Below are positions 2,991 to 48,013 of a stretch of DNA of 64,000 nucleotides, piece by piece. A program made the translations under genes and the position numbers. The notes beneath the pieces are model-generated. The model worked only from the letters and a program-made list of their open reading frames with translations. It was not told the DNA's origin and ran no database searches. The DNA is from Eledone cirrhosa (taxonomy: Eukaryota): positions 231,384,001 through 231,448,000 of the forward strand of contig OZ024742.1 of NCBI GenBank assembly GCA_964016885.1, in the 5' to 3' direction. Position 1 is the stretch's first letter; every line of letters begins with the position of its first letter.

Positions 2991-3113
2991 TTTTCGTTTT
3001 TCTTCCATTTCTCTCCTTTTCTTCCGTTCTGCTTCTTCTTCCTTCTCCAATTCTTTCCGTCTCTGTTCCCGTTCTAACTGCCGTTGCCTCCGTTCTCTTT
3101 CTCTTTCTGCAAT
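2991..3113 (-). CDS. ACIN1: Acinus coding exon N, charged coiled-coil (123 nt, phase 0-0); gene probably continues left of the window
   Basis: Encodes IAERERERRQRQLEREQRRKELEKEEEAERKKRREMEEKRK. TTTAG acceptor and GTAAAG donor. Confidence 0.9.
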
Positions 3114-3234
3114 CTAAACAAAGATTGGTCATATTTAGTTACATTGTCTTATGTGGTTAAATATGTTAAATAAAGTTAAATACTAAATCTTTGTTATTTT
3201 ATAAGTTACATCAAAAAAGACAGTCACCTATGTA

Positions 3235-3472
3235 TTAACCTGTTGACAGCAGTGTATATTTTACACAACTTCAGTTGCTGCGCTGGGTTTTTCCCCTCAG
3301 TAAAATGACTATTTTTTTAAACAAACATTTATTAACAACACAAATCTGAATGATTGACAAATGCCATATCAATAAACTAGTAACCCCATCTAGCTTTGAA
3401 GTTATGAACTTTTGGAAAAGAGTTCAAACATGTTAGGACGAGTTATCTCGTTTACGGCACTGAAGAGGTTAA
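3235..3472. mobile_element. Possible third TTAA-flanked MITE
   Basis: TTAA CCTGTTGACAGC ... GCACTGAAGAGG TTAA, imperfect inverted termini. Confidence 0.5.
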
Positions 3473-3835
3473 ACCCCATCAATTTAGTTATATTATACAG
3501 CTAAATCTAGAGTTATTTCAGTTACATCAACACAATAGACAGTCACAGTTGTATGATGCATGCTGATACTTCATAGCTAGATCAAAACAACAAACATAGT
3601 TAGTTATTTATAGCTTAATCTTCTGACTCAGACTTTAATGACCCATTCAAAACATGCCAACATGGAACTGGGGTTGTGGGGACATAAAATGAAGAAACAT
3701 TTAATCCTTTTGATACTAAACTACCTGAAACTGCCCCTTGTTCTATGACAAAACTGTTTTGAATATTTTATATTTAAATTTCAACTTTTCATTATAATTT
3801 TATGTAAGAAACTTTTGTTGTTTTCCAAACAACTT

Positions 3836-4207
3836 AATAATTGTTTCTACTTTTGGCACAAGGCCAGCAATTACCCAGTACATTACTGGTACTTTATTTT
3901 ATCGACCCCGTAAGGCTGAAAGGCAAAGTTGACCTTAACAGGATTTGAACTCAGATCGTAAGGGACGTAACTATGCTGGAAAGCATGGCGTCCAACCCTC
4001 TACCAATACTGCCAATACAAACAACTTAATAATTGTTTCTACTTTTGGCACAAGGCCAGCAATTACCCAGTGTATTACTTTATCGACCCAGTAAGGATGA
4101 AAGGCAAAGTTAACCTCAGCGGGATTTGAACTCAGACCACAAAAGGCCGTAACTCTTTGCTGCAAAACATGGCATCCGACCCTCTACCGATACTGCCAAT
4201 CCACTGC
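3836..4207 (-). mobile_element. Two tandem tRNA-derived SINE copies nested in a MITE
   Basis: Same family as 92-278, separated and flanked by CAAACAACTTAA. Confidence 0.85.
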
Positions 4208-4353
4208 AAACAACTTAAAAATGAAAGTTATTTTACTAAATCCCTCCAAATTCTTGATTATTTCAAAACCATCTGAAAATCTTTAACTGTGTATTATTAG
4301 AAACACAGTAAAAAAAGGATTAAATACTGAAAGTAAAAATAAAATGTTCCTAC

Positions 4354-4460
4354 CTGACTTTCTGTTAATGGCAACCAGTATATACAAGGAACAGCTTTAG
4401 TTTTCCTAAATAAATCATCTAATAATTTGGCAGGGGCTTCTTCTTCTATTACTTTCTTTT
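4354..4460 (-). CDS. ACIN1: Acinus coding exon M, RSB (RNPS1-SAP18-binding) motif (107 nt, phase 1-0)
   Basis: [28 protein letters not shown] matches the Acinus RSB motif. TTACAG acceptor and CAG|GTAGGA donor. Confidence 0.97.
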
Positions 4461-4585
4461 CTGTAATACAAGGGAGAAATGTCCAACATTAATGCAAAAA
4501 CAAATAATTACAGAAAAATTCTCAAGTAAAATATATCTTTAATATCATATATAATCATGCAAAAGTCACACCATTTTACTATGAA

Positions 4586-4773
4586 ATAATTGTTTCTACT
4601 TTAGGTACAAGGCCAGCAATTATCCAGTGCATTACTGGTACTTTATTTTATCGACCCCATAAGGATGAAAGGCAAAGTAAACCTCGGCGGGATTTGAACT
4701 CAGATCGTAAAGGGACGTAACTATGCTGGAAAGCATGGCGTCCAACCCGCTACCGATACTGCCAATCCACGAC
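4586..4773 (-). mobile_element. tRNA-derived SINE
   Basis: Very similar to 92-278 along its full length. Confidence 0.85.
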
Positions 4774-4974
4774 GTACAAATCAAACTGTACTATGCCTAC
4801 ATTAAAACTATCATAGGAGATGATGAAAGAACAGTGCTAGTTGAGAGAGGCTGGGCTGAAAAGGACCTGTCCAACCAATGCAAACATGGAAGCAAGCAAG
4901 AGAGAGAGAGAGAGACTACTGTGTGTATCTAGTTTAGAATAGGCACACCACGTTCCTGTGTTGTGTAAGGCAGT

Positions 4975-5232
4975 TAATAGGCTTGGCACAAGGAAGAGCA
5001 TCCAATCCCAAAACATTGCCTCAAAAAAGCACATGATGAGCACAAAGACTAATCTGGGACCCACATTTGCTTTAGCAGGGAAAATGGCTTTAAAATGCTT
5101 GTGATTGTCTTTGTATACATATAGTTCCTGTATGAGCAAGACAAGGTCAGCCAACCGGACACTGCCCACAACAGGACAACCCGTCTAACCCATGCTAGCG
5201 TGGAAGAATGGACGTAAAACGATGATGATGAT
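4975..5232 (+). mobile_element. RTE 3'-end fragment (similar copies near 60520-60810)
   Basis: Shares GGAAG.GCATCCA and CCCATGC.AGCGTGGAA...GGACGT.AAA(GAT)n with the LINE 3' UTR at 2480-2651. Confidence 0.7.
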
Positions 5233-5289
5233 ACACTGACACATCATTAGAGATATAATGTGAAACTGACGAAATGTTATATTAGTTAC

Positions 5290-5548
5290 CTTTCTTTTCC
5301 CGTTTTTCTCCACTTAATGCCCGTTTTTTCCTTTCTCTGGACCGTGACCTTGACTGTGAACGCGACACCGATCTTGACCTTCGTCTCATCTTACCACGAT
5401 CCCATTCTCGTACTTTTTTAATGTCTTCTTTCTTCTTCATTTCCCTCACAGACTTCTCAGCCGATTTCACTGCCTTCACACTAACATCTTGCTGGATTTC
5501 TCGGATAATATCCTGGGGGCCTTCTTCCTTCGAACGATAGTAACTTAC
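5290..5548 (-). CDS. ACIN1: Acinus coding exon L (259 nt, phase 0-1), REWDR motif plus RS repeat
   Basis: Encodes VSYYRSKEEG...VREWDRGKMRRRSRSVSRSQSRSRSRERKKR. TTTCAG acceptor and AAG|GTAACT donor. Confidence 0.93.
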
Positions 5549-6036
5549 CTGAAACATTGAAAAATAAATAAAATGTTCAGCTCACATCTATACAGGTTTA
5601 ATGCTGTGTGTATCCGGTTTAGAACAGGTACACTGTATCACTATGTTGTAAGAGGCAAATAGAAGTGTTTGTACCAGGAAAGGCATCTGGCTGTAAAGTA
5701 TTTGTCCAAAAATAGACCCTATGTTGACTATGTCATGGAGCCATTGAAGTTAACTTCTGCTTTAGCAAGGAAATTGGCCTCAAAACACTAGCAGTACACC
5801 TATGCAGGTTTAGTTGGCCTCCTACAAATTTGTATATCATATTGTTTCTTAGGTGTTTTAATTATAGGGGCTCCAGTAATATGAAAAGCGACATGGAATG
5901 AAGCTTCTTGCTCAAGAACACCACATTCCACCAAGTTCAGAAATTGAACATGTGACCTTATGATTGTGAGTGCAACAATCCAACCACTAGGTCATGCCCG
6001 TTCATTTGAAATCTGAGATAAACATACTACACCTGT

Positions 6037-6265
6037 TTAACCCTTTAGCATTTATATTACTCTATTTATACTATTGTATTTTTGCAGTAGAGGCTTTATC
6101 TTACATAATTATCTCACATAATATTGAATCTATGAGATTTTGATATTATTTATTTTGAGAACAATACCTTAACCTAAGTATGAGCAGCAAGTTACAGCCG
6201 GTTTGAACAGGAAGAGGTGAGAAAATTCTGGCCGGTTATGGCCTGTTTAAATGCTAAAAGGTTAA
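6037..6265. mobile_element. piggyBac-type MITE family A (copies at 28855-29062, 33600-33753, 52234-52430, 59048-59230, 63611-63811)
   Basis: TTAA target duplication with CCCTTTAGCATT / AATGCTAAA(A/G)GG terminal inverted repeats and a shared internal sequence. Confidence 0.8.
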
Positions 6266-6605
6266 AATATAGACAAATAAAATCACATCACAAAACTAAT
6301 AAGATTTAAATAAAATTTTGAATTCAAACTATACTTTTAGAAATAAAAAAATATTTTTGTACATAAGTTCCACCTCCATTTTGTATACATACACAATATG
6401 CAACATATTTTGGTCACATTTAAGCTTTTCAGATATTTTCAACATTATATGCAAGTATTCTTTTACCCGTTTCAGTGATAAAACTGGACATGCTAGAGCA
6501 TCACCTTGGAGGGATTTAGTCAATTATTTTAACCACCCAATGCTTGTTTTACATATCTTTTTGATTCTACCCACTATATTGCAAGACATAAACAGACTCA
6601 AACAT

Positions 6606-6643
<38 letters not shown>

Positions 6644-7689
6644 CACAGGTTTTTGTAGTTTCTGTCAACCAAATTTCACTCACAAAGTCATAGTAGAAGA
6701 CACTTGCTTAAAGTGCCATGCAGTGGGACTCAACCCGAAACCATGTGGTTGCAAAGCAAATTTCTTAACCACTTTGAATTGAATATCTAAATAAAAAATT
6801 TAATGAAACTATATCTTTAAAAATTGCACCACATATACTCATGTATAAGTTATACCAGTAAATAAGTGACACCTCCATTTTGCATACATTTACATGTTTT
6901 CTACTGTTTAGTCAGAGAAAGAAAGACAGGGCAGTGCCTATGACCTTTTCCAGAACCCCAGAGACTAGTGGGAAGAAGGTATCTTCAAACTGGAGTCTTG
7001 GCCTGAATGCTTCCAACAGAATAAACTCAACTAAAAGTACCCGAGAGACAAGTCATCATCATATCATTTAACATGTTTTATTTGCTAGCAAGGGTTGGTC
7101 ATGTCAGACCTCTCAGGTTGGCCACGAGCCCTTATTTTGCCTACATGCGTTCCTGTACTCAATTGCTCAGATGGGCTGGGGGCCCAACGAATGGCACTAA
7201 ACTAGGAATGCTGTCATATCTTTGACACAGCTGAAGAGTTCTCCCAACCCTTTGTTTGGCAGGTTTTTAACAACTGGATGCCCTTCCAATCACCAACCAG
7301 ATTGTGTTAAGTTGGTTGGATTAAACTTACCAGATGCAATCATTATCATCCTTTAACATCCATTTTTCCATGATGTGCATGTGCTGGATATATGTTTATA
7401 ATGTTTTGTTGTTTCTTTTGCTTGGTTTTCCAGGCTAGATGCACTTTTCCAGGCTAGCACCAACCATTAGAGAATTTGTATCGGTTTTTTTTATTCAGAG
7501 TAACTGCTCTCATAGACTGCCTTCTCTACAGTCCATGTCTATCTCATACCATATATTTTGAATTGCGGTTTTGGAGGTCAAGTAGATTAAGTGGCATGCT
7601 AGATTTTCATCTATTTTTGTGGAAAAAGGAGCAGCTTATAAATGAGTATATACAATACACTGAAAAATAAGATATCAAATATAACTCAC

Positions 7690-7797
7690 TTCATCATCTG
7701 TAGCATATTCTACTCGTAAAATCTTTGGATTAGATGATGGCCATTTAGTTCCATGTAGAGCTTTTCTTGTTAAAATAGCTTGTTCTTCTGTTTCATA
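7690..7797 (-). CDS. ACIN1: Acinus coding exon K, C-terminal half of the RRM (108 nt, phase 0-0)
   Basis: Encodes YETEEQAILTRKALHGTKWPSSNPKILRVEYATDDE. TTTAG acceptor and GAA|GTGAGT donor. Confidence 0.96.
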
Positions 7798-8319
7798 CTA
7801 AATAAAGAAATAATTTTAAATAAATACAAAGAAATTATATCCTCCTGGAGAGGATGTTAATCAATTTAGAAGTGTGTTACTATCATTGAATTTTTATTTC
7901 ATTTACAATTCACACTTGGTTTAACTGGCCTCCTATGAAGTTGCATCTAAGAGGTTTTGATTGTTTTTATAAGCATTTTGCTCAAGAACACAATGTACTG
8001 ATTGGTCATAGAATCGAACCTACAACCATATGATCATAAATCCAACACCCTGACCACTAAACCATGAATATGGAGGAGCAGAGAAGGTTGGAAAGAACAG
8101 AAATATGGTTTGGTGGATGTCTAGCATATTGTTGAAAAAGAGGAAGACAAACAATGAATTGAAGAAGATGATGGAAATAGAACCATGCTGTGAAGAGAAA
8201 TGGAATGAAATGTTTAGATCATGTGTTGAGGAAGGATGAAAGTGTTTGGGTGAGAAGATGGTGGGAATAGAACTAGTGATGGATGTTGTGAAGAATAATG
8301 GAATAAAATGTTTGGAGTA

Positions 8320-8705
8320 TCATGAAAGTAACAGAATCATAGCACTGCTGATTAGGGACTGGGTTAATCTAGACGAAATACAGTTCGGATTTGTGCCAGG
8401 TAAAAGCACCACAGACGCTTGGTCAGGAAGAGAGCTGGCAAAGCAGCTACAGAAGAAGTAAACCGCTCTACTGGCATTTGTTGATTTGGAGAAGGCTTTT
8501 GACAGAGACCCCCATGCCATAATCTGGTAAGTTCTTAAATGTGATAGGCGTTACAAAGGGCATTCAGCTGCAGAAACCAAGCCAAAATCAGTTCTGTATG
8601 AGCAAGACATCGTCACTTGACCCAGCATTTTTCACAACAGAACAACTCGTCTAAACCCATGCTAGCGTGGAAAAATGGACGTTAAACAATGATGAAGATG
8701 ATGTA
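8320..8705 (+). mobile_element. Internally deleted RTE fragment (RT piece joined to the 3' end)
   Basis: LDEIQFGFVPGKSTTDA and FVDLEKAFDR-like coding similar to 925-1095, followed by CCCATGCTAGCGTGGAAAAATGGACGTTAAAC and a (GAT)n-like end. Confidence 0.8.
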
Positions 8706-9027
8706 GAGGAAGGTTGAAAGTGACTGGGTGAGATGATGAGAATAGGCCTAGTGATGGATGTTGTGAAGAGAAATGGAATGTAATGGTGGGTTGTGGAAGG
8801 ATGAAAGTGATTAGAAGAGAAGAATGATGGAAAAGTATTTAGAAGCAAATAGAGGAAAGGAAAGACATGGATAAAAAAGCCATACCTAAAGATGATGGAG
8901 GAGGAAATGAAAACCATGTTTGCAGACAATACAGAAAAACAAAAAAGTCTGTCATAGAGCCCACAGGGAAAATGGTTTTAAAACACATATAGTTGTTAGT
9001 ATGTTGTAGAGAAATAACGGTACATAC

Positions 9028-9332
9028 CTTAGCAAAGCAATGTGATTTAATCTTGTCTATCCAGAAACCGTTTTCTACAACCAATCCTGTCCGTTTTAGA
9101 AGTTCCTTTAACTGACCAATTGTAAAAGGTCGGACTAAATTTCGGACATGGACAATCTTGCTGACAGGATTATGAGCAGGTGATGGGGATCTTCGTGCAG
9201 CCATTGGTTCCTCAGGTTCTGTAATAGACAACTGATGGCTGACCCTTCGAACAGTTAATGGTGGCGCGAACGTTTTGTTGGTCACCACCACAGCTGGGGC
9301 TTGTTGGTTAACAACTATTGGAGTGGCAGGTT
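9028..9332 (-). CDS. ACIN1: Acinus coding exon J, N-terminal half of the RRM (305 nt, phase 1-0)
   Basis: SPSP...IVHVRNLVRPFTIGQLKELLKRTG...FWIDKIKSHCF is the diagnostic Acinus RRM. TTTCAG acceptor and AAG|GTATGT donor. Confidence 0.97.
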
Positions 9333-10876
9333 CTGAAAAGGTAAATGTTTAGCTATTAGTACAATAATAACTGGATGTTTTTAGCAGAAACCTATATCAA
9401 ACATACACTAATCAATGCTTAGATTTCTGAAGCTCACAGGACAAGATGACAAAGGACTGTAACGAATGGGGATATGCTGAGCTGAAAATGACATCAAATT
9501 CATGAAGCCTAGAAAGGTAGATGTAAAATAGGAATGATACCTGAATGCATATAACACATTGAAAACCTACCAAACAAAAGGTGGGAATGACCATTTATAA
9601 CAACCTCTCTGCTGTTGGTGTCACAATAAAATGCCATCAGTAGAGCATGGGATGGTATGTAGATAAGATGTAAGCCCTCAACTCATCTGAGAGGTCAGTA
9701 GCCCTGCTTGGGTACTGGTTAGTCTGTAATCACCCATTTAACCCTTGTTAGTAGGGAAAATGGATGATTTTTTTCATTTATACAGGATAATATATAACTT
9801 TGGCCTTCTTCTTTGCCCACTTATTCCTGGTAGGATCATGGGGGCATAATTCTCAAAACTCCTTCCAGCAGGTCCTATCAGAAGCAACCATCTCAAATTG
9901 ATCCCAAGCAAGACAAGCCGAGTTCATGGATGTTATCCAACCATCATGCCCAGGGTCTACAACCAGTTGTTTTGCCCATAAAATCTGTCCAGCAATCCTT
10001 TCCAGAAACATTTTAACCAAATGCCCATGATATTGGAGCTGTGATCTCTCAATTCAGGAAGTAGTGGTTCTACCAGAAGCATGTATTCTTGCTTTAAAAG
10101 CATACAGCCACGTTCCATGAGACATGCTGTGGAAAATTCGCAGGATAGCTTTGTTAGTGAATTTGGTAGACAGAAACTGTAAGCCCATTGTACATGGCAG
10201 CATGAAAGGTTGATGTAAAATTATATATATGTATATGCGCGTGTGTGCTTGCGCGTGTGCACGTTTCCCCAGTTGCCACAGAGATCATATTGACACCTGC
10301 AATGACAGTTGTTTATTTCCCCCACAAGCAAAACATATATGACATTTACCATACTTAAAATAAGTTATGAATTACTGTCAGGAAAGACATTCAACTTTAG
10401 AAATACTATCTATAAAAGAGATTTTCCAAACCATGCAAACATTGATATAAAGACGAATGTAATAAACGGTGACATTTTTTAAACCAAACTTAGTTATATG
10501 ATATAAAACTGTTAATTTTAATGTGTTTATATTTATTTTAAAAACTTTCTATCATAAATTTTATGTAAGAATGGTATAGCATGGAAGACCTGTGTTGATG
10601 CTACAAGAGCTGATCACAAATTGCTGAAGCTCTGAGGAGATAAAGGACCACAAGTGCAGGAACGCTGTATGGGGAAAAAACTGTCCAACCCATGCAAGCA
10701 TAGAAAAGTAGACATAAAATATTGATGATGATGGTTTAAGTAATGTTCTAAACACCAGCTTAATAAGAGAAAATTAGTTATAATACAAAATCCTTCCAAA
10801 TTATTATTTTCAAAATTATATGAAAATAGCGAACAAAGGAAATATGGTAAAGAAAAGGTTAGCTTTGCTTCCTTAC

Positions 10877-11018
10877 CTCTCTCAATTGGTGCAGCAATTG
10901 GCACAGCAGGTAATGGTGCTGCAGCAGGAACTTCAGAAGAGACTTCTAAATCAGCATCAGTTAATACTTCCCTTGCTGTTGTCACCAATTCAACCTCCTC
11001 CTCCTCCTCTTCTTTCAT
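10877..11018 (-). CDS. ACIN1: Acinus coding exon I (142 nt, phase 0-1)
   Basis: TTTAG acceptor and GAG|GTAAGG donor. Encodes MKEEEEEEVELVTTAREVLTDADLEVSSEVPAAAPLPAVPIAAPIER. Confidence 0.88.
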
Positions 11019-11610
11019 CTAAACAACAATGCATCAAATTAAAACAAAAATCAGTAAAATGAAAAGCATTGAAACTTGACTTGTTAAATATTGTAAAAAA
11101 TATCCAACTTGGTATTTAACTCTTTAGATACCAAAACACCTGAAATCACTCTTGGTTTTGAAACAAAACTGTTCATTTTAAAGTGTTGAAACCCTTTTGT
11201 TAACATATTTTTAATGAAATACCTATGATTGTCAATTAGCTTTTTAAAACAATGAAAAACTTAGAGGAATAAGCAAACTTTTTCAATATTAAGTTGGCAT
11301 TTAGAACAAGATTTTGTAGGAACCTCTTAAGCTATAATGGCAGGTTTAAATTCAAACATGAACACTTGAGACAACTTTTTCTAATCATAAAACCAGGTGC
11401 AGTTTCTGACAGTTTGGTATCAAAAGTTATATTCCAAACAACAATAAGTGTTTTTAAGACAATTTTCTTTTCTAAACATTTGTGTTATTATTAAGGTTAA
11501 AAGTTTAATTAAATCTCTCGTAATTCTTAATTACTTTAATATCTTATACAGAAAGGCAGAAAATATTTTTGTTGGAAATCTAATCAGAAAAGGGTTAAAT
11601 TAATACAAAC

Positions 11611-11736
11611 CTGTACAGTTCTTCGGAACTTTACTTCCACTTTTTCCTCTTCATGGTCCGAGAAAGAACATTCATCATGGCTAAGATCTAATATGGCCTC
11701 TTTTATGGAACTGGGTTTTATCTCAGGAATTAACCC
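11611..11736 (-). CDS. ACIN1: Acinus coding exon H (126 nt, phase 0-0)
   Basis: Encodes GLIPEIKPSSIKEAILDLSHDECSFSDHEEEKVEVKFRRTVQ, continuing the Acinus SLIPDIKP motif. TTTCTAG acceptor and CAG|GTTTGT donor. Confidence 0.9.
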
Positions 11737-12516
11737 CTAGAAATAATTAATAAAAACATAGTAATGAGGTTAACATCATGAATCAAGCTAACCATGCTAT
11801 TCATAATCATAATCATCAGCATCTTCATTTTATATCTGCCTTCCATGCTGGTATGAATTGAGACAGATTGTCATCGTTCAAGAGACCTATTTGGCAGTTT
11901 CTACATCTGTTTCTGCCACTCCTAACACTGACAATTTTACAGAGTGGATTGGGTGTTTTATTCTGTCACTAGCACTTTACAGAGTGTACTGTGTGTTTTA
12001 TCATTGCACCAGGATATAAATGTTTTTGTTTCTACAGCTCACATCTGTGTAGGTTTAGCTGGCCCCCTACAAGGTGCACCTCATGAGGTTTCGTTTTAAT
12101 AATGGCCCCAGTTCTATCATGCAAAGGACACCTCACTGGATCAGACATTAGCCCCATTAGTGGTGTTAATTAACAGCAGCTATTGGCACTCTCTTTTTTC
12201 AGCTGAATGAACTGGAGCAACCTGGAATAACGTGTCCTAATCACTAGGCTATGATATAAATAGTGTGTGCTGGATGCAGTTTAACAAGGCATCCTGACTC
12301 ACACAACCAAAGAGTCATTTCAACTCATTGTTTGGCAAGTTGTCTTTTTTATCATCAACCATCTTACAGTATGTACTGGGTGCATTTGATCATGACACCC
12401 ACACTAGGAAGGTATTTGGTTATAGATTTGACTGAAGTATCCTATCTAATTTATGGGGAAGATAATAAGATTTGTAAAACAATCTTTCAATTGGTATGAG
12501 ATGCTATTTAGGTTAC

Positions 12517-12698
12517 CTTCAAAGAATCTGTAGAAATATCTATTGTAGTAGACTTAGTGGGTTTGGCACTAGTTCCCCATTTACGTTTACGTGGTACAGC
12601 TAAGGGAACTGGTGCTGCTGCTGCTGCTACTGCTGTTGTTGATGGAGACGTTGTCTTCTCTTCACACTTTTCACTGGATTCTTCATTTTGCAACTTAA
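12517..12698 (-). CDS. ACIN1: Acinus coding exon G (182 nt, phase 1-0)
   Basis: Contains RKRKWGTS...IDISTDSLK, resembling the Acinus KRRWG...ISITTESLK motif as recalled. TTTAG acceptor and AAG|GTAACC donor. Confidence 0.92.
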
Positions 12699-13164
12699 CT
12701 AAAATAAATAAACAAAAATTTGAAGTTGACAAAAAATAAAAATAACAGGACTTAACACTTTTGATATCACACCACCTGAAACCATCCATGGTTCTCCAAT
12801 ATAAAACTGTTTTAATATATAACCAGCAATGTCTGTCTGTCTGTCTGTCCGACAGTGGAAACACGTGCGCACGTGGTTGCTATCTCTCTCTCTCTCCAGC
12901 TATCCTTCTCTTTTAGTCTGTCTGTTTCTCTCACTCTTTCTCTTTGTAACACACTAACATTCCTCCCCTCTATCGCTGTGACGAATGGGGAGATGGAGGA
13001 GGAGGAGAGAGTCACTTCATCACTTCACCTCTGCCTTTCTTTCTCTCCCCTCTCACTCCCTCATTACGTACAGACATTAGGGCGGTGGATTGGCAGAATC
13101 TGTAGAGAGTCGGACACCATGCTTCATAGCATGGAGTTACGTCCCTTTACGGTCTGAGTTCAAA

Positions 13165-13395
13165 TACAGAAATACAGAAATATATATACATTTCTGTGTG
13201 TGTAATATATATATATATATATACACACAGTAATATATATACATTTCTGTGTGTGTAATATATATATATACACACACAGAAATATATATATATACACACA
13301 GAAATATATATACATTTCTGTGTGTGTAATATATATATATATACACACACACACAGAAATATATATACATTTCTGTGTGTGTAATATATATATAG
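13165..13395. repeat. Palindromic minisatellite (about 4 units)
   Basis: Repeats of ACACAGAAATATATATACATTTCTGTGTGTGTAATATATA with variable (TA)n spacers. Confidence 0.85.
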
Positions 13396-13426
13396 ACTAA
13401 AAGTTTCATTCTTGAGAAATCACCAG

Positions 13427-13428
<2 letters not shown>

Positions 13429-13471
<43 letters not shown>

Positions 13472-14334
13472 TTAGTTTCAGAAGATCCCGTTAAGGGTGA
13501 AAGCAGCGATTCTTTGCTTAAACTTTAATCTTTTATTTTAATAAATATATATATATATATAAATAAATGTACGTTTGTAATATATTAATAATATATATAT
13601 ATAATGTATGTATATATAATATATATATATATATGTTAGTAAATACGAAGAAATATTTATACTATTCCACACACATATAATATATATGTTATGTCGTCGA
13701 CCACTGATTCCAACAACCAGCGTTCTAGGCCAGCACGTGACACCTGCGTTCCCAGCCATGGTACACACGACCTTCGAGTAGTTACCATGGAGATCTAGCC
13801 AGACACAGCCGAGTTCTTTGAATTTACAGACGACAACTTTAAGACTGGCTTTTGGTGTTTTAACCAACTCACTGGGGCTGAGCATTTTCTTTTTTTTTAT
13901 TATAATATATATATATATATGTGTGTGTGTATGTGTGTATGTGTGTGTGTGTGTTATATGTGTGTATGCGTGTGTGTATATGCGTGTGTGTATGTGTGTG
14001 CGTGTATATAATATATATATATATTATATATGTATATATTGTGTCTCTCTATATATACATATATATAGGTTTAAGTGTGTATGTGTGTGTTAGCGTGTGT
14101 GTATGTATGTATGTGTGTATGTATGTGTGTATGGTATGTGTGTTAGCGTATGTGTGTTAGCGTATGTGTCTGTATGCGTGTGCGTGTCTGTAAGTGTGTG
14201 TGTGTACAGGAATTCATAAGTTTCCTAAAATATGTCTGTATGCTTAATTTTTCTTAAAAATTATAAACTGGTTCTTCTGTCAGAGATAATAATCTGATTT
14301 GAGAATAATGCATCTCAAAATATGAACATGGGTG

Positions 14335-14365
<31 letters not shown>

Positions 14366-14370
14366 GTGTC
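13429..14370. repeat. (TA)n/(TG)n microsatellite cluster
   Basis: Directly visible. Further (TA)n runs at 44577-44626 and 47971-48009. Confidence 0.9.
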
Positions 14371-14426
14371 TGTGTTAAATATATATCGACTAGCAGAAAA
14401 CCGCCCACCAGGTGGTTTTCTGCTAG

Positions 14427-15049
14427 TCTATATATCTAAAACAGAGAATGTCTGTCCGTTTGACTCCCTAAAACTCGAGAACCACCCAACCGATTGTTTT
14501 CAAACTTTACACATGTAATACTTATGGTCCTGTGAGTGTTTTGAGCAAAGAAAATTTCAAACTTTCAATGCCTTAGGGACCGCATTAGGCGATTTAGCGA
14601 TCTCTCTCTATAATTCTGAGTCTTTCTTTTTAGATAGATACATAGATTAACGTTGCGCCCTTATAATATCTGTCTATGTCTGGCTGTCTGCATTACGACA
14701 TTATCACATCGCTATCTGTGTGTGTGTGTGTGTGTATATGTATATATATATATATATATAGTATGTAACGTTTTTCGGAATATTTACTTCTGCGTTCACA
14801 GATTGATTTTTTTTTAGTTTCAGAAGATCTCGTTAAGGGTGAAAGCAGCGATTCTTTGCTGAAACTTTAATCTGTTATTTTAATATATATATATATATAA
14901 TTATATATTCGTGTACAGATATTTTTGCACACACAATAACAAAATATAAACAAACGTATTTATTTCACGAGGCTCGATAAGGATAAATATATATCAAATA
15001 TATAAGAACCCTAGAGCAAACTCCGAGCAACGCCAGGCCATTCTGCTAG
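14427..15049 (+). mobile_element. Non-autonomous Helitron-like element
   Basis: 5' TCTATATATCTAAAAC...ATGTCTGTCCGT start. 3' CCGAGCAACGCCAGG (imperfect hairpin) then TTCTGCTAG|T. A related ATGTCTGTCTGTCTG head occurs near 12815-12855. Confidence 0.65.
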
Positions 15050-15363
15050 TATTGATCTAAAAATTTCCATCATAATTTTATGTAAGAACTTTCAAGTTAT
15101 GCTCCAAAAACGAGCTTAATGATGAACAAGTTGGTTTAATTATTAAATCCCTTCAATTTGTTTGAAAATCATTGGCAGCATCTTTAATTAGAAATATGTT
15201 AACAAAATGGTTAGGTTATGTTCCAAACACCAAATAAATAAGTTAGTTATATTACTAATAAACTCTAAATTACTAATTATTTTCAAAATGATTTGAAAAT
15301 CATAGGCAGTATGTTTCATTAGAAATATAGTAAAGAAAGGATTAAATATGCAAATCTACTCAC

Positions 15364-15451
15364 GAGGAAGTTGTAGAGATGTACGTGGAGCGGTGTCATT
15401 ATCTTGGTGCTTCTTTACTTCCCCCTCTTCTTCCTCCTCCTCCTCTTGCTG
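15364..15451 (-). CDS. ACIN1: Acinus coding exon F (88 or 85 nt, phase 0-1)
   Basis: TTTCAGCAG tandem acceptor and GTGAGT donor. Encodes QQEEEEEEEGEVKKHQDNDTAPRTSLQLP. Confidence 0.82.
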
Positions 15452-18400
15452 CTGAAAGACAACCAGCTGATATTTTTGACAGATATAAACACGACTAACA
15501 TCAGATAATGTCTCAAAGTGAAACATGATTGTAGTAGGATCTTTCATCACTTTAATCCATCAGAAATATTTTTTTTAATATTCACTTTCAACAAACAAAA
15601 AGCAAAACAATATTACTTAAACTATCTTATCTACTCTTTTTATTGATTTAATTTCAACTTCTGATGTGTGGCCATGCTGGGGCACACACTCCCCATCAAA
15701 ATATCTAACTGATTATATTATTAATCCCAAGAGTATGAAGTAAAACCCTATCTAAAACAGAGCAGCCATAAATTCAGATCAAGGAACATATGATCAGAAA
15801 TGCTCCCTCTGTCAAAAACACCAACAAAAATGCCACATCTGGGATACTGAAGTCACCATAGAAGCTACTGAGAACAATATTGGTAATTTGCAAATCAAAA
15901 ACGCTCTTCTTAACAGATATATTAATAAGATTTGAGCTACATGGAGCTGACTTGCTATTGTGACCAGTCAGCACATGTCACCTTTCCAGTGTCCTACTTC
16001 CACCAAGTTAGTCACACAAGGAATAACTTATGAGAAGAGGCTCCAATTTTTCTTTTGTTTCATTTTTCTTCATTTGATAGATAAAGAGGTTCTAACCTTT
16101 TAATATTAGGTAAAAACTATATTGTCATGTCATTCCTACTTTACTCTTAGTTTCACCATTATATTCGCAATTTTATATAAGAATCATAAGTTTAAAACAA
16201 AATGACAAATAATTTTAGTGAACCCCTCATTAATTAATTGAAATAAAGTGCATTTCATTACAAAAATGATAGCGAAAGGGTTAAAATAGTAATTGTATCA
16301 ATTAATCAAATACACCAAATAAAGCATATTTGCTTATTATTTCAACACCAAATTTTCAGATTTTATGCCTATCTCATTTTTCTACAAACTAAAAAAAGGT
16401 ATCCTGATTCAGAAGGTGAATACTTGAGTCTATATATTGAATTTGTACTTCACCTATCAAGAAAGAAGCCAATATTTAGATCAGACTCAAAAAACAATGT
16501 TTCCATTGGTCTCACTAAAGCTGATACTATCTACCAGCAGCAATTCCTGGTAGGAAGAGGTGGGATCTGAACTCCAAATGCACAGAAACAGGACATTACC
16601 ACAAAGCACCCCGTCAAATACTTTAACCCCAACAATCCACTGCCCTTGGACTAATTTATTTATTGACCATGAAAGGACAAAAAGCAAATTTGACTTTTGC
16701 CCGATTTGAACTCGGGGCAGAGTGAACCAGAACAGATAACGTGGCATTTATTCCAATACCCTAACAGCCCTACCAATTCCCCACATAATTCACCTATCTA
16801 AAAAGCTTGATGCCAAAAACAGCATCTGTTTGTAAAATATTGCCTCAAAAAGGACCCACAGGGAAGCCTGGAAGGTTGACCCCCTACTTTAGCAGGGAAA
16901 ATGGCCTTAAAATACCTGTGTCATATATAAAGACAGTAGTAATATAACAGTAACAATTTCAGTTAATAGTTTCATTATCAAGCAAGCCTACACTGACTGA
17001 TACCAATATAGCATAGTTCAAATTTATTAAGTATTCTAAGTATGTTTTGGGGTTCTCAGCTTAACACAAATCAATTTACATTGAATATAAAATGTTAAAC
17101 AGCCAATCCAATGTAAAAATTCTTTGATAAAGTCATATTAATAGTTTCCAAGCTGCTAATTTGCAAAGTCAGAACATCAAATTAAATACTTCATTCCAGA
17201 CCTCAAAGTTCAAATGTTACCAAGTCTCAATTTTATTTTTTTAGGTCAATATATAAAGTACCATGGTGGACCAGCAATTTGCATTTTCAGTCAACCTGTG
17301 ACAACAATGTTGCCAGGCTGTATCAAGCTTTGCCTTTCCCTCAAACAACATCAGTGGCATAGAGAAAGAAGACTAGCATGCATGGACAACTGCTAGTCTT
17401 CAAAAGAAAAAAAAAAAACGCTTGCCCTGGCCTCTGCCTAAGACAAGAGCTTTCCAGATGCAGATTCATAGTCTCATGAAACAGAGGTTTTCCAGATAAA
17501 TGGTTACTCATTTCTTTCAAAATACAATCTAACTAAAACCCTATCTTAATAATTTAAATTACTTAACGCTTTAGATACAAACCCGACCAAAACTCACCCT
17601 GGTTCTATAAAACAAAGCCACCCATTTTAAAGAGTTCCAATTTTAAGTAAAAATTTTCCATTGTAATTTCAAATAAGAACCATACATTAAGTTAATGAAA
17701 TAATGAATGGTTTTAGTAAATCCCTCATTTATTAACTGAAATAATGTATTTCATCACAAATATGGTCACAAAACAGTTTTGATACTAAACCATCCAAAAC
17801 TGGCTCAGGTCCTACGAAACGAAACTATCCATTTAAAAAGTTCCTATATAAATTAAAATCTTCCAACATAATCTTATATAAGAACTGTGTTAAGTTACTA
17901 TCTTAGTAATGAAATAGTAATTTTAGTAAATTCCTCAAAATTCTCCATTATCTAATTGAAATAGGTCATAAAAGATTATTTTCTTCAACATATTTTTAGT
18001 AAAATACAAAAGATAAAAAATGTATTAACTATAGAATCATTAAGAATAGAGTCAATATGTAATTAATTTGAAATCTAATTAACAAAATATTCTACACAGA
18101 GTGTTTAAATTGAAAGTGAAAAAGAGTAAAAATAAAGGACTAATTAAGATATTTTATCACATTAGATATTACTTTAAGAATATACTTTAAGTTACTGGTT
18201 TCAAGGTCTATACATTCAAAACAATACATATATCATAATAAACATACTAGATAATTAACAGTTTTAAAGCATTAAAATATATACATAATTAAAAATGTCT
18301 ACATTGTTTAACTAATTTACATTTTTTAAAATAAAATATACTAAGTGTAAATATTTCTAAAGTAAAGAGCAAATGGTGAAGTTATATTGCTGCCCAGTTT

Positions 18401-18749
18401 AGGCACTGCCAAAATACCAGCCTCAATAAACGCTCTAAGCCTCTTCTGCCTCCTGTAACATTGAACAAACAACCCAGCTGGTGTAGCATCGCACATGTCA
18501 GAGGGTCATCTAACATCATCGCCGTTGTCATCATTACCATCATCAGCACAGTATCATCACATCTTTGGGTATGACTCAAGGGCATGGGAAGTAGTAAAAT
18601 ATTTTCTCATCAGTTGTGATGCACAGCCTTCTATCTTCTTGTGCAGCATCCTTGATGTATGTGAAGTTGCCAACCACCAGATGAAATTTGTACACAACAA
18701 CCACACATATATATACATATATATATAAACAATCATATATACATATATG

Positions 18750-18780
<31 letters not shown>

Positions 18781-21700
18781 TCATATGGATATTTTAGCTT
18801 CTTGGTCATAAAGTTCATAAAGAACTAAAGAAAAGCAGTCTTTTTTATGTATGTGCATGTTTTTGAAATTATTGAGACAATAGAATAAAGGGTGTATTTA
18901 TGTTTTTGTTAAAAGTTCTTGCTAAGAAGTACATCATATGAGAAGATTAAAAATGTTAACGTATAATTAACATTCAAGTAAGATTTCTGATAAAGTCTTT
19001 AGAATAATGGCAAAGGATTATTATTACTGAAGCTAAGAATGAAGCCTAGGACAATAAGTTGAACACATTTTCTATCTGGTAGAGTATTTCAAAATGATGA
19101 TAGAATACATAGAGCTGTATTAAAATATTCCATCAGAACAACATAGGTGTGGTCCAAGTTGTTAAGAGATCTGTCAACTAATTCAGTCAGAGTAACTTTA
19201 TTTATTCAGTTTAATACCATTGATAAGAACATTCAGATGCCTTGGTGTTGATCAAGATTGCGTACTTTTCAATATTTCACCTGTCTCAAAAAGTAAAAAC
19301 AATACAATATCCATAAAAAGGTGTTGGTACTTTGGTAGAGTCGGAGATTGGTAATTGTATTGTATCAATAAACCGAGCAAGTTGGGTTCTAGTATCTTCC
19401 AAGTAGTAATATAGACGCAATACACAAGTTTCTACTTTTGTTAAAGCAAAAATTCACAACCAGTTGTGAAATGGAGTGTGGAGAATGACGTCAGATTTCT
19501 GTTGATAGATGAAACTCCTACTGGAGAAATAACATCAGTAATATTACCAAATAAAACAATCAATAATTGATTTAAAAAGTTCATTAAATTATGGCTTGTG
19601 GTACAAATGTAAGATATAAATATATCTTCTATGAGTGAATGCAAAAAATTCCAATAAGGAATACAGTTTATTTTTGTTGTTGTTGTTTTTAATCATACTT
19701 ATGTAATGTTCAATAGTTGTGGTGGCAGTGGCTTCGTTAATCAGTGAAAGTGTATTTTATGTGTTCATAGTTGAAAATGTAGGCAGTTGTGTTTAACAAC
19801 ATTTATTATTTAGTACCAATCTCAGAAACAAATGTACTTGTGTGTTTTAAATATCACCAGCAGGAATAGCAGTAGTTTTACTTTGAATATGGGTAAAATC
19901 CTTGGGTATTGAATGAGTCCTTTTAAATACTGTTTCATTTATATAGGAGATGCAATCATCAACAGTGGAAAGACCAATGTAAACATTGTTTCTTTAGTCT
20001 TATCTGATGATCAGCTCCTTTCTGTTGATATTAGATGTGGTAAAATTCTCAAGAAATTCTGGCAATACTCCTCTTTCAAACAGCTTCAAAAGAGAAGTAA
20101 AAAAGTCCAATAGAATAAGATCCCACAGTAATAACAGTGATAATTCAGCAACGAAGTGATTTTCCATTCTCCATCTGGCAGAATGAGGACACATCGATGA
20201 CTGCATAACATGACTCCTTTTGGCAGCGAATTTCTCTTGCTTCGTTCAGATGAGTTTTTCTTCACATCTTCCTTTTCAGGGTGTCATGAGTTAAGGCTGG
20301 AGAGTGCATATCAGGTGAGACCAGTGGCTACAAGTGGCTGATGTTGACATCAGTGTTGGCGTTCGCCTTTCAGCAGCTCACAGATTTGCAATTCTCTATT
20401 GCATTGAGGAGATAGTAAGGTGAAATTAAACAACTGGGGAGGAACTGTTTCAAAAACAAGCTAACGACAATCAGCTCTTATCATCCTTGGCATCAAATAT
20501 CTTTAAATTTTTCCCAGACTCAAAACAAAACATACACTTCATTTTATCATTTTATCAAAACTAAAGATGTGTAAAAACAAACAAACAAAAAAAAAAACAC
20601 ACTAAATCAAGACAATACTAAAGACAATTTAAAAAAAAGCTTCTTAACATTCACATTCATAAAAGAACTACTAAAATTCTAATAACATTAGCTTGAACAT
20701 TATAAATTACCTTCTTACAGCATATTTATCTACCCTTGGTTCTATGATACAAAATTGACGGTTTTATGTAAAAACCTGTGTTAAATTATGCTCCAAATAT
20801 CAGCTTAATTTATATTACTAAATCCCACAAAATTTTTCATTATTTTCAAAATACACATCAACTGTATTAGAAATATGCTAACAAAAGAATGAACCAATAA
20901 CTTTAAAGCTAATTAATAAATTTCATTTGTTACAGATAATGATCAAATATGTAAATTATATTTAAAATCTTGACAAGGTAATTTAGATGGACAATTTAAC
21001 CCATTATATATTAGAATCAGAAACCACCCATTTCTAAGCTTTCACCATAACCTTATGTAAGCTTTGTTTAGTTATTCTACAAACCAGTCTAACAATGACA
21101 AAATTAGTTACAAAACCCCAAAACTTCTGGTCAATTTCAAAATTATATGCAGTGTCTGTTATTAGAAATATAAAAGAAACAAAATTGTTTAATTAATACT
21201 ACTAAAATTACCATTTTAACATATTTCTATCCTATATACTTATATGTAGTTTTAAAAAGTTGATAGTGATAACAAAAAATTTATTTTACAATCACTAAAT
21301 TGAAATCTAATCATTTTCTAACAAGGAAAACCAAAATATTTCCATTTTTGGTTATTTTGAAAAATATTATTTTTCAACTAAATTTAAACTACCAGCAAAT
21401 CAATATTACAAGCAACATAGAACACACATACACAACCACTCACATAGATAATATATTCTCTAATAAGAGGTGGGGAGAGATAAACAAAAAGCATTCAAAA
21501 TAATTGTAAATAAGATTGTAATTGTATATCTAAATGTTTTTATGTGAGAAAATATCTAAGTAAGAGAAAATACATTATCATAGACAAATCTTGTAAAGTA
21601 TCAGTTTGAAACAGCCTACTTAATCAACAGGTCTATTAAATAATATCTTTAAATATATATTTCTCATCAATTAGATAATGAGTACATTTTCCATGCTTCA

Positions 21701-22782
21701 GAGAGAATCACAGAATAAAATAGTTAGACAGAAATAAAATTAAACTATATATATACATATAAAACCACTACACATGTATTATCACTATAAAATAGTTGTA
21801 AAGTGGATAATCCGCACAAGCAATTATTCACTTTTTTCTGCCAATGGGTTATACTTTTAACAATTTTATAGTGATAATTCATACATATATTATATATATA
21901 TATATACACACATATATACACTCTAAAGATTTATCAAACACACACATATATATAGAGAGAGGGAGAGATGGAGATATCGGGAATGAGATGGCAAGACTAC
22001 ATTTACAGAGGCCCTCTATTATATAGGGCATCTACTGTTTTGTTATTAGGCAACAGTTTGGTCCACAGTTATTAAGAGTTCCAACCTGTACATATCCACC
22101 ATCAACCGATAAAATGTATTACTATTAATTATTCTTTCTAAATAACTAAAATATTTTCATTTTGATAAATTCAAAAACAATTTTTTTTTTTTCAGAGTTG
22201 AAGCTGTCTGTCAAGTGACTTGATCTGAGACTATATGCTGAAACTCAAATAATTACATCATAGAAAAGTATTTTAGCCAAAAAAAAAACCCCCCGCAAAT
22301 GTTAAATTCAGTTTACATTTATCACTAACCAAGTAGCAAACTATTAAAAATTTCAACACCATAAAATAATTGATATTGTATGTTTTGACTCTTCTACGAT
22401 GCAATTTGATTTTTTTAAAGCTAAATTTAACCCCATATAATAAAAAAAAATATAAACTAAAACAATATGATGCCTAGTTAATTCTAGATATATCCAGGTT
22501 GTAGCAAAAAAAAACAATTTGGTTTCTCTTTCCAAGTCCTTTCTTTCTTACAACACATAAGAAAATATACATGCATCACACACACTTATACAATAAATTG
22601 AAATAGTGCAGACAGCAAAGAGACCAGTCAAAATTTGAGCTGGGAACATAAAAACTAAAGGGACTAACTAGAAAGTAATGTTTCTTTGTTTTTACAACTG
22701 TAGAATCAACATTAATCATAACAGTATCCTCTCCCCAAAGAATCAAATACAAAGAAATATATTAAATAATTAACGACTTTAC

Positions 22783-22846
22783 CTCATTAGTTTCATTTGG
22801 TGCCACTTCCTCTTTTGTGGGCTGTTGAGGTTCACTTTCTACATCA
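22783..22846 (-). CDS. ACIN1: Acinus coding exon E (64 nt, phase 2-0)
   Basis: TTTTAG acceptor and GAG|GTAAAG donor. Encodes SDVESEPQQPTKEEVAPNETNE. Confidence 0.8.
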
Positions 22847-25187
22847 CTAAAACATAAATTGAGTAAAACTCGATCAGCAGAGAAAATCACAAGCAAAAAC
22901 TCAACCAGCCCTAGGTTTTTTGGTACAAATATCTCGCTGAACAACTATGTCACCTTGTGTCATGTTTTTTTCCTTCACAACGCATCAAATCAAACATATT
23001 ACTAGATATCAAATCAAACATATTACTATGGATTCTAAAATAAAATGAAAAAAAAATAAAAAAAAGAAAGGAGCCAATCACCAGATCAGACTAACAAAAC
23101 TACATCTCCACTGGTCTTTCTATTGATGATACTATCCATTGGTTACAACTCCTGGCAGAAGCGCCACTGATTTACTTGTGAGAGGGAGCAGGATTTATCA
23201 AAATAAAAAGAGCCAGAAACGATATTGCAAAGTATCCTATCTGACTCTTAACAAATAAGAATTTCACCAATCCACCATCCCTGGACTGGCACTTTATCAA
23301 TCCCAAAAGGAGGTATGGCAAAGTGGGATTTAGAGTATAGAGAACCAAAACTGAGAAATTTCATCTACAAGATCTCTTAACTTAAAATTCGTCTTAAAAC
23401 ATTAACTGGAATATCACCAAAAATATAAAATTAATCATTATCATAATTTAACATGCTTGCATGGGTTAGATGAATTGTCACATTCTGAGATTAGATTGTT
23501 CATGCCAGGTGCATTTATTCCATTTTTAGCATCATCATCATTATTGTCTTCATTTTTACATGCTGACATGGATCGGACGAGATATTTTTAGACAATGTTT
23601 TACAACCAGATGCTCTTTCTGACATCAACCTTTTCAGTTGTCTCTTATGACATGGTTACTATTCTAAAACCTGGAATACACAAATATCAATACAGACTTA
23701 GAATTATTGTTTTACATCCATATTTCCACGCTTTGTGCAGACTTTGATGGGTGTTAAGAAACGGCGTGTAAATGATGGTACACATTATTAGCTGAGTAAA
23801 CTGGAGCAAGGCAAAATAATGTGACTTGTTTAAAAAGACATGGTACCAGTCAGGCAATGAAACCCATGGACTTCAAACAGCCTTAGTAAAGTAAGCGAAA
23901 GTATTAGTAATATACATTTTTTTAAATATCTTTTTTATTTTGTTCCCCACCTCGTACTCCCAGCATCACTGCCCATTTTTCAGAGAGGGAAAGAGTAAAG
24001 TATCTTCAAACTGGAGACCTGGACCAAATGTTTGTAGTAGAGTAGACTTTGTTAAAGAGACACCCAAGGACCAAGTGGTAGTGGTATTAAACCATTTGTT
24101 GGTTTAAATCTTTCACCCATGCAGATCACATTGGGATTTGAAAACAGAATGCAGAGAGCTGGAACAAATATGACAGGACATCTCTTTCAACACTAACAAT
24201 TCCACCAATCTACTACTCTTGATTGGTACTTTATTTTATCAACTCAGAAAGGATGAAAGGCAAAGTTGATCTCAGCAAGATTTGAACCCATAAGGCAAAA
24301 CACCAGAACAAATACCACATGGCATCACATGCAACTCGCTAACAATTCCACCTCGACTGGTAGTTTATTTTATTGACTCCAAAAGAATGCAAGACAGCAT
24401 TCTAAGATTCGTTCCATTTGTGTGTGTATGTAGCAAATTGGTTATTATTATTGTGTTAGTGTTTGCATGTTCATATTTATATATGCATAGATATACATGT
24501 ATACATATGCACACCAAACTATTATCTTGGTTATCTATGTTAGTTGCAGATAGTTTATCCACAAAAATTGGTTGTAATAAAAGAATTATTAAACTAAAAA
24601 CTTGGTTTTGTACTCTATTAAATATATAAAATACAATTAATCATCATTTTTTACAGCACAAGGCCAGCTAGTCTACATATATTAGGGTAAATAGGTTTCT
24701 TAAGTTGAGTCAACAATCAAGAAACTTCTTAGTACTGGTGCCACAAAAATACACCTAGGACACCCAGTAAGGTGGTTGGAAGGGCATGTCAAGAGGATTT
24801 TCAGATGTGTCAAAGGAACAACAACCTCTCAATCTCCCTCGTGCTGATGTCACAATAAAATGTAGCCAAAGCACTCTGTAGAGTGTGGGAACATATGTAT
24901 GTGCGATGCCCAGCCTAACTGAAAAGTCAGTAGTGACAACACATCCAACCATTGCTATCAGGGACAACAGATGTATGATGATGATGATGATGATGATATA
25001 CGAATACTTCACAATAGCTTTCAACAGATCAATGACACAAAGTCCAACAGATTATTGGTTTACAACACATATTTTGTTCCTATCACAGGAAATCATTTTA
25101 AAATTGAAAAATAAAAACAAAAGAATAAAAAAAACTATCCATGATGTGGCCAAGTATTTGACAAGAAAGCCCAGCCACAGAACTAAC

Positions 25188-25300
25188 CTATCAGCAGCGT
25201 CAGGTGAAATAACTTCATCGCTTTTATTTTTTTTCATTTCGCAACTCGGAAGTGCTACATTTGTAACAATTTCCTCACTTTCATTTACTTCCTTTTTATC
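25188..25300 (-). CDS. ACIN1: Acinus coding exon D (113 nt, phase 0-2)
   Basis: TTTCAG acceptor and AG|GTTAGT donor. Encodes DKKEVNESEEIVTNVALPSCEMKKNKSDEVISPDAAD. Confidence 0.82.
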
Positions 25301-26736
25301 CTGAAATACAGAGCAAAATTTCATTACATTAAATGGAATATTACTACTACAGTTACTGCTATTATTCTAGGTTTATATATCTTGAGCCAAATCTAAAATA
25401 TATATATATATATATAATGGAATCCATCAAAAAACCACATGCTATCATACAAAAAAGGTCCTTATATTTCAGGTAAAATACACTTTTACAAAGGTGCTAA
25501 GAGAACACAAGAGAAACTATGTTCACAAAGGTAACATGCCCAATTTATTATATATATTAATATATTGATTATATTATATATCAATTTGACATGCCACCTT
25601 AATGAACATACAATATCTTTCTTTCATGTTCTCATAAGACCCTTGAAAAAATATTACCCCGGAAATATAGGAACCATTTAAGTAACATTCAATATTTTAT
25701 TTTTGTTTTTTTATATTTAATATATAAAATAGCCATTAAATGATGATGATGGTGAGAGGAGTTAAATCATACAATCCTCCTAAATGATGCTTATACATTA
25801 TTATTTTCATTTTATGTCTGCTTTCCATGCTGTCATGGAAAAGTTGTCATGGTCAGAGCAACCACGTTCCATATTTGGTATGATTTCTAGTTAGATGTCC
25901 TATTTAAGGTCAATTACCTTACAGAGCAGACTGGGTGTATTTTATTGTGGCACCAACACTAACACTTTACAGAGTTTACTGAGGGCATCAGAATTTGAGA
26001 GGCTTAGCCAAACCAAAGAATAATCACAAACCCTATATTGTCTGATTGCCAACCACTTCACTTACTGGGTGCATTTTATTGTGACACAAGTGCTAGAGAA
26101 GTTGAATACTACTTAGAACAAGAACACCCTTTCTACTTTGTTGTCTTCACCTGGTCATCCACTATTGGAGAGGATGAGGCAGAGTGATGTTTTATTTTTA
26201 TTCTACCTTCTATCAACATGTTAGAAGATATCTAAAACTTAAACATATTATTCCTATAGAAAATATTTAATTATTATTTTCAAAATTATTTGAAAATTAT
26301 ATTTCATTAGAAATATAGTAACAAAAGGGTTAAAGGTACTTTGGTGAAGATGCAAGCTTAGTGGTTAGTGTGTTTCACTCTTGACCCCTAATCCCAGACA
26401 TTGTGTCCTTGTATGCAGCACTTTACTGGCAAAAATGAGGTGTACCTGTAATTCAAAGGTCCAACCTTTTCACCCTTGTGTCACACAATCTCTCTAAGAA
26501 CAATGTTGAAGGTACACATGTCTGTGGAATGCTCAGCTATGTGCAAATTAATTTCACAAGCAGGCTATTCAGTTGTTTCAACACTCATCATCAGAACAAA
26601 CAGAGATCCAACAAAAACAAAGGCATTCTTCCTGAGAACATATATCTATAGAAGCTATTTAAAGGGATTCCCACTTACAGATTGCCTGTTTTAGAAATTA
26701 TTTACTGAGCCAAATTATACACACAATTTTAAATAC

Positions 26737-36627: not shown

Positions 36628-36660
<33 letters not shown>

Positions 36661-36759
36661 AGAGAAAATGTATAACATTATAATTTCCATTTAAAATTAT
36701 TATTTTGTTAATTTTTACATCTATACATTGGAACATGTAACAAAATAAATAAATAAATG

Positions 36760-37645: not shown

Positions 37646-37678
<33 letters not shown>

Positions 37679-44572: not shown

Positions 44573-44629
<57 letters not shown>

Positions 44630-47963: not shown

Positions 47964-48013
<50 letters not shown>

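Follow-up and report, generated by a model that had tools for sequence, protein, structure and literature searches.

An exon start in octopod Acinus that rebuilds a consensus 5' splice site: a putative RS-exon, probably without a selected feedback role

The closest described counterparts of the exon considered here are the recursive-splice (RS) exons of humans. A putative RS-exon is defined as one whose rebuilt junction scores above the value reached by 90% of the donors of the species; such exons make up 3.6% of human exons, occur in 21.7% of human genes and are constitutive in 93.8% of cases (Blazquez et al., 2018; PMC6224609). Their re-splicing requires that the upstream intron be removed first and is repressed by the core EJC, PNN and RNPS1, the knock-down of ACIN1 having a 'very weak' effect, and some of these exons are physiologically skipped through incomplete repression (PMC6224609). 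EJC-sensitive RS-exons are recognized by their skipping upon loss of EIF4A3, MAGOH, RBM8A, PNN or RNPS1 and by a lariat or spliceosome footprint at the first base of the exon. In Drosophila, annotated RS-exons are about half as common and the same study found no EJC-sensitivity in S2 cells (PMC6224609), though other work found that the fly EJC represses sites regenerated at exon junctions, which its authors regard as an inherent by-product of splice-site sequence, and that fly cDNAs are re-spliced at such sites (Joseph and Lai, 2021; PMC8184009). Among the peripheral complexes of the EJC, PSAP represses cryptic donors (PMC7355637). It shares RNPS1 and SAP18 with ASAP, and the two have been suggested to bind the EJC in an exclusive manner (PMC6015020, PMC9178013); loss of Pinin is not rescued by Acinus, and knock-down of ACINUS, PININ or RNPS1 in HeLa cells left the mRNA and protein of the others unchanged (PMC6015020). 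A search of the literature, largely without subscription journals, yielded no paper on recursive splicing in octopus or other molluscs. It likewise yielded no report of RS-exon autoregulation, or of re-splicing as a homeostat of the EJC's peripheral complexes, in the texts covered, while supplementary tables may list such exons. The main text of PMC4986896 does not contain 'autoregul', and among the matches listed from the supplement of PMC6224609 ACIN1 figures as a knock-down target only, the RS-exon tables perhaps lying outside that scope.

The DNA examined here, referred to as the window, is a stretch of 64,000 nucleotides from Eledone cirrhosa (G000:C3:231384001-231448000), for which an original prediction had proposed an RS-exon in the Acinus gene as a candidate autoregulatory switch. 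All positions given for the gene are those of the window, and the gene lies on its minus strand. Fifteen exons, namely 14 within the window (2991..54647) and a last one located approximately 830-960 nt ahead of the window start (L002), form a single open frame of 891 codons. Among named proteins, the closest come from Octopus vulgaris (P0121, 95% identical over the exon of interest) and from cuttlefish (ACIN1, P0003). ACIN1 proteins are characterized by an RSB motif, an RRM and an RS-rich tail, to which the long isoform adds a SAP domain. The RRM of both falls under the Pfam cut-off yet aligns with named ACIN1 proteins, and the RNPS1-SAP18-binding (RSB) motif is recovered by a profile match (PF16294, E 1.6e-17); together, the RSB motif and the RRM alignment identify the predicted gene as an orthologue of Acinus (ACIN1). 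The cuttlefish protein additionally has a SAP domain, and no exons for this domain were located in the genome, the search extending over 30 kb in the upstream direction. Several other features of the locus were observed. The most upstream mapped exon (54150-54647) encodes low-complexity runs of Thr, Asn and Ser that are seen in the octopod and are missing in the cuttlefish P0003. A tandem acceptor, CAG CAG (15445-15452, exon start 15451), could provide a possible one-residue alternative acceptor. The last introns of the gene hold retroelement-like fragments (approximately 535-2620 and 8340-8700), reverse-transcriptase-like by eye, and a high-copy repeat of about 170 nt recurs at 4585-4780, 3840-4200 and 100-280, with very high RNA depth over 4556-4791.

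RNA data, in the form of assembled contigs from four (X19, X15, X9 and X10) of 22 runs, were aligned to positions 4320-7840. X19 has the same sequence as the window and comes from a library that is not on record, whereas X15 is from a relative, also an octopod, with 31 differences in 251 nt of the exon of interest. Exon J (9028..9332), recovered by tblastn with P0121 at 96% identity, encodes the first part of the RRM region. It is followed by exon K (7690..7797, 108 nt), which covers the end of that region and ends in GAA in phase 0, as seen in the spliced contig of X19. The 2141-nt intron K-L (5549..7689), whose joint is present in both X19 and X15, leads to exon L (5290..5548), a coding and included exon of 259 nt that is present as one copy in the 3.0-Gb genome G000. 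Exon L is followed by exon M (4354..4460, 107 nt), which encodes the core of the RSB motif (PF16294), and by exon N (2991..3113). The acceptor of exon L reads TTTCAG/GTAAGT, such that its first six bases (5543..5548), the Val-Ser codons GTA AGT, rebuild the 5' splice site GAA/GTAAGT upon joining to exon K. This architecture, including the length of exon L, the end of K at 7690 and the start of M at 4460, is as originally predicted, with the X19 contig confirming the K/L and L/M junctions.

The consensus for pairing with U1 over positions -3..+8 serves as a scoring motif for donors, and we judged donor strength by the number of matches to it, as a proxy for the RS-exon score threshold. By this measure the rebuilt site has 7 matches out of 11, the own donor of exon L 8 and that of exon K 6, within a range of 5-9 across the gene's 14 donors. 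Hence, the earlier view that the rebuilt site surpasses the donor of exon L holds over +1..+6, where the rebuilt site is perfect, and is reversed over the longer span. The donor that exon K uses, GAA/GTGAGTTA (7682..7689), differs from the rebuilt GAA/GTAAGTTA at +3 alone, and the rebuilt site looks competent because of this near-identity to K's own working donor. As a near-original donor thus stands again behind exon K after the first intron has been removed, something must prevent its reuse. By the proxy, the rebuilt site falls in the range of putative RS-exon donors (PMC6224609), and exon L is an internal exon with a downstream donor of its own (AAG/GTAACT, 5284..5289) that is used in X19, X15 and X9 (joint 4460/5290). 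Its designation as a putative RS-exon thus fits the published definition at the level of sequence (PMC6224609); being coding and included, it is not an intronic ratchet point. No other of the gene's 14 mapped junctions rebuilds a full-consensus donor; a second exon with a GT start, TTC/GTCTGT, was also found in the gene. While striking locally, the site is not beyond the expectation of a genome-wide scan, given the other GT starts and the 21.7% of human genes with a putative RS-exon. As a separate observation, exon 2 of mago nashi (L155, G000:C7:22.637 Mb), an EJC-related gene, also begins with GT and rebuilds ACG/GTAAAC with exon 1; it is frame-shifting, 59 nt long by an eye count, and its rebuilt site is weaker than that of exon L.

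The beginning of intron K-L (GTG AGT TAT, 7681-7689) and that of exon L (GTA AGT TAC, 5540-5548) both read Val-Ser-Tyr, and aligners therefore misplace the K/L junction by up to 8 nt. A recent gain of the intron by duplication, considered in view of the 8-nt likeness between the K donor and the start of L, was rejected, as the position of the intron is common to many other animals.

Comparison of sequences indicates that this phase-0 intron position is ancient while the GTAAGT signal is not. Sixty-five of 80 metagenome loci could be anchored, and in 31 of them a GT interrupts the frame at exactly the K/L codon, although many of the loci are near-duplicates or close relatives and hence not independent. 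Where the next exon of an interrupted locus was found (L040, L044, L047, L049, L051/L052, L053, L057, L065, L067 and L084, with L087/L088 as a near-pair), it starts with TTT, TTC, CTG or TTG, and none of the ten distinct-looking cases has a GT. A GT at the border occurs in one of 22 continuous loci (GAG/GTTGAA), and none of the 80 loci resembles the cephalopod junction. At the protein level, Val-Ser at the first two residues occurs in one of 120 homologue clusters from a fish-heavy set and, of 150 representatives, in two of the 147 that could be anchored, the one or the other of these two being an apparent intron read-through. Val alone is found at the first position in 13 of the 147, and the position of the Ser is occupied by D or E in 95, Ser being rare there. 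Mammalian proteins have a Leu at the junction, which makes a GT impossible. Cuttlefish-type proteins have Val-Asn, one of them (P0125) being a genomic frame over the same exon with the same borders, and their rebuilt site would hence read GTN AAY and lack the G at +5. Another, P0126, begins with M-N-Y-Y, where the Met is most likely a GTG start call. A protein search for short, exon-L-sized proteins from further cephalopods found none.

With respect to the second octopod, the X15 alignment puts the initial 8 nt of exon L at the start of the K intron, and seven letters fit on both sides. From this behavior of the aligner, we infer that +3 is not A in X15 (G, or a C/T tie) and that the other seven letters are unchanged; a G at +3 could also come from A-to-I editing. 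Should the X15 sequence be GTG AGT, both octopods examined would still have a consensus donor. Of 21 fourfold sites, 11 differ between the window and X15, as do at least 21 of the 54 third codon positions (28 of the 31 differences being visible), and, as estimated from substitution rates, the chance that drift alone would retain GTR AGT in two octopods is roughly even. The change that would have created the G at +5 appears unusual for the protein, yet a single transition from the cuttlefish Asn suffices for it. The expectation that the GTA AGT codons are kept beyond the needs of the protein largely fails: outside the octopods, cuttlefish have Val-Asn and other molluscs and animals have other residues and lack the motif, and in the related octopod +3 seems to differ.

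The RNA contigs bear on whether exon L is lost from the transcripts. X19 has one K-L-M contig (1741 nt, depth 309.6) with 0 differences and both junctions, and X15 likewise has one (795 nt, depth 800.2); X9 covers the L/M joint alone, and X10 consists of fragments, neither of these two spanning the K/L junction. The K-M joint (4460/7690) that re-splicing was predicted to generate is absent among the joints listed for X19 and X15, both of which cover K and M, a weak test insofar as contigs drop rare forms. The main contig alone accounts for the depth bins of X15 over K and M, with no residual; for X19, what remains of the depth over the 3' end of K limits a skip contig to approximately 9.5 at most, or 3%, assuming that such a contig carries about 30 nt of K. 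Since contigs omit rare variants and NMD would deplete a target transcript, these data show only that transcripts skipping exon L are no major form at steady state.

Joining of K to M would give a product ending ...DDE-K-R-K-stop, in the AAA AGA AAG TAA frame that had been predicted, with the TAA (4449..4451) ahead of the RSB motif and ending 95 nt ahead of the M/N junction and 218 nt ahead of the last junction. NMD is expected of a stop that precedes the last junction by more than about 50-55 nt, a rule that may not hold in cephalopods. Both distances exceed this threshold, and no relevant report on cephalopod NMD following it was found in the literature. Loss of exon L would accordingly remove the RSB motif via a premature stop. 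The acceptor of exon N offers a second possible partner for re-splicing, a product absent from the original account: by the arithmetic of exon lengths, the K-N form would drop L and M, 366 nt in total and in frame, giving an RSB-less protein with no premature stop. A truncated protein of the K-M type was not seen among the eight octopod and cuttlefish proteins listed, a weak test in itself.

We also examined sites with an acceptor followed by GTAAGT across the genome. The pattern Y8-N-CAG/GTAAGT occurs 134 times, as against 133 for a reversed control and 66 and 33 for permuted tails, and a stricter T-tract pattern shows no excess (10 versus 9). In the first 30 loci (L089-L118), with 24 non-repeat loci in each set, the upstream T content is 0.53 versus 0.36 and branch-like motifs number 15 versus 7 (p 0.02); none of these 30 has an obvious coding frame behind CAG/GTAAGT. 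The genome-wide sites are possible intronic ratchet points. One repeat family that combines a pyrimidine tract with CAG/GTAAGT accounts for six of the 30 (L098, L100, L106, L110, L113 and L117) and, where it inserts into an intron, could give rise to recursive-like sites.

Taken together, we regard it as probable that the GTAAGT of exon L is an incidental site, which arose from codon drift at an ancient intron, is silenced and has no selected role in feedback. Under this reading, Val-Asn (GTG AAY-like) would have passed to Val-Ser by single transitions, and the Val-Ser codons would rebuild a consensus donor once the upstream intron is removed. The rebuilt site is likely to be lineage-restricted and EJC-masked. 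Its silencing might be due to the EJC with PSAP, to splicing order or to competition with the own donor of exon L, possibilities borrowed from human and fly work, and re-splicing would mainly represent a leak upon failure of the EJC, as for hundreds of human exons. The genome contains genes for Pinin, SAP18 and Mago, and PSAP-type masking is therefore possible. Some observations weaken this overall reading: the site is as good as the working donor of K, Ser is rare at its position, a donor is possibly retained in both octopods and EJC-sensitivity was absent in S2 cells (PMC6224609), though repression by the fly EJC has been found (PMC8184009). We also observed that the Pinin gene (L008:475-2328, G000:C22:19.94 Mb) is a single open frame of 617 codons, apparently lacking coding introns, and its coding part could thus not host an RS-exon.

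Among the alternatives, it is unlikely, yet worth some weight, that exon L leaks with no feedback being involved, such that a few percent of transcripts are re-spliced in normal cells and are either degraded or lose L and M in frame, which would amount to noise not under selection or to variation between tissues. The identity of the rebuilt site to the donor of K except at +3 and the physiological skipping of some human RS-exons (PMC6224609) are consistent with such a leak, and the bound from X19 permits it up to approximately 3%. In X15, however, no residual depth was seen on K or M, and the donor of exon L pairs with U1 at least equally well (8 versus 7 of 11).

The original prediction had a different emphasis, in that the output of Acinus was thought to be tuned by the EJC machinery to which it belongs. 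The part of this link that concerns the EJC agrees with the literature, in which the core EJC with Pinin-RNPS1 (PSAP) is the repressor; the part that concerns Acinus does not, since the effect of ACIN1 is 'very weak' and it does not rescue the loss of Pinin (PMC6224609, PMC6015020). As the repressor is PSAP rather than Acinus, any feedback on Acinus would be indirect. With its sign and complex corrected, the idea becomes that of an octopod-specific mechanism that senses the balance of the two complexes: an excess of Acinus would divert RNPS1-SAP18 from Pinin, PSAP would fall at the K/L junction and re-splicing would reduce the mRNA coding for the RSB motif, closing a negative feedback loop. 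The products of such a switch would be K-M, as an NMD target, or K-N, as an isoform that stays in frame and lacks the RSB motif, and the ASAP-to-PSAP ratio would thereby be held steady. We consider this very unlikely. The logic of such feedback is coherent, though hypothetical. In its favor, loss of exon L would remove exactly the RSB motif, ASAP and PSAP share RNPS1 and SAP18 in what may be exclusive associations with the EJC (PMC6015020, PMC9178013), repression of the PSAP type has been established (PMC7355637), the change from N to S is a rare one for this protein and AGT is apparently kept in X15. Against it, the motif is missing in cuttlefish and other animals despite the ancient intron, no skip product is seen in the X19 and X15 contigs, the HeLa knock-downs point to no such cross-regulation in that the other factors stayed unchanged (PMC6015020), and two octopods are too few when retention of GTR AGT is a nearly even matter under drift. 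The proposal of an autoregulatory switch thus finds neither a K-M contig nor a conserved signal, and Acinus is not the known repressor. Finally, we give the least credence to one-step skipping of exon L as an AS-NMD control of Acinus to which the GTAAGT start would be irrelevant. Exon L is indeed frame-shifting (259 nt) and self-control by AS-NMD is common among RNA-binding proteins, but frame-shifting exons are the norm, no skip contig is seen in X19 or X15 and no report of such control of Acinus was found in the literature searched.

On the present evidence, exon L represents one more putative RS-exon of a known and common class, in a phylum for which no recursive-splicing paper was found. 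The feature itself is real; a regulatory role is unsupported. It nevertheless provides a convenient test site for repression of rebuilt donors by the molluscan EJC, because the rebuilt donor has almost the same sequence as the donor that was just used. If this Acinus is cloned as cDNA without introns, the transcript could be re-spliced in the manner of the fly cDNAs (PMC8184009). Feedback, if true, would make re-splicing a homeostat of the EJC's own peripheral complexes.

These features place exon L among several known systems. First, the RS-exons of KPNA1, MRPL3 and SACM1L (Blazquez et al., 2018; PMC6224609) are likewise internal coding exons that, together with the exon before them, rebuild a consensus 5' splice site, have a donor of their own and are normally included; exon L differs in being molluscan, in having an EJC-peripheral factor as its host gene and in being known from sequence and contigs. 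Second, the junctions of CkII-beta and CG31156 (Joseph and Lai, 2021; PMC8184009) are protostome cases in which splice-site and codon sequence regenerate a donor as a by-product, a parallel that would extend to exon L, but those sites have been shown to be used upon EJC loss or in cDNA constructs whereas that of exon L is known from sequence. Third, the AS-NMD of RBM10 and FUS resembles what loss of exon L would entail, namely a frame-shifting exon loss in a splicing-factor gene that leads to a premature stop with further junctions downstream of it; in contrast to these, the unproductive isoform of Acinus is not seen in the X19 and X15 contigs, its signal is unconserved and Acinus is not a known repressor of such sites. 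Fourth, the zero-nucleotide ratchet points of Drosophila, with their cryptic RS-exons (PMC6224609), share the AG/GTAAGT junction, yet exon L is coding, required and preceded by a 2.1-kb intron, rather than being a stepping stone within a long one.
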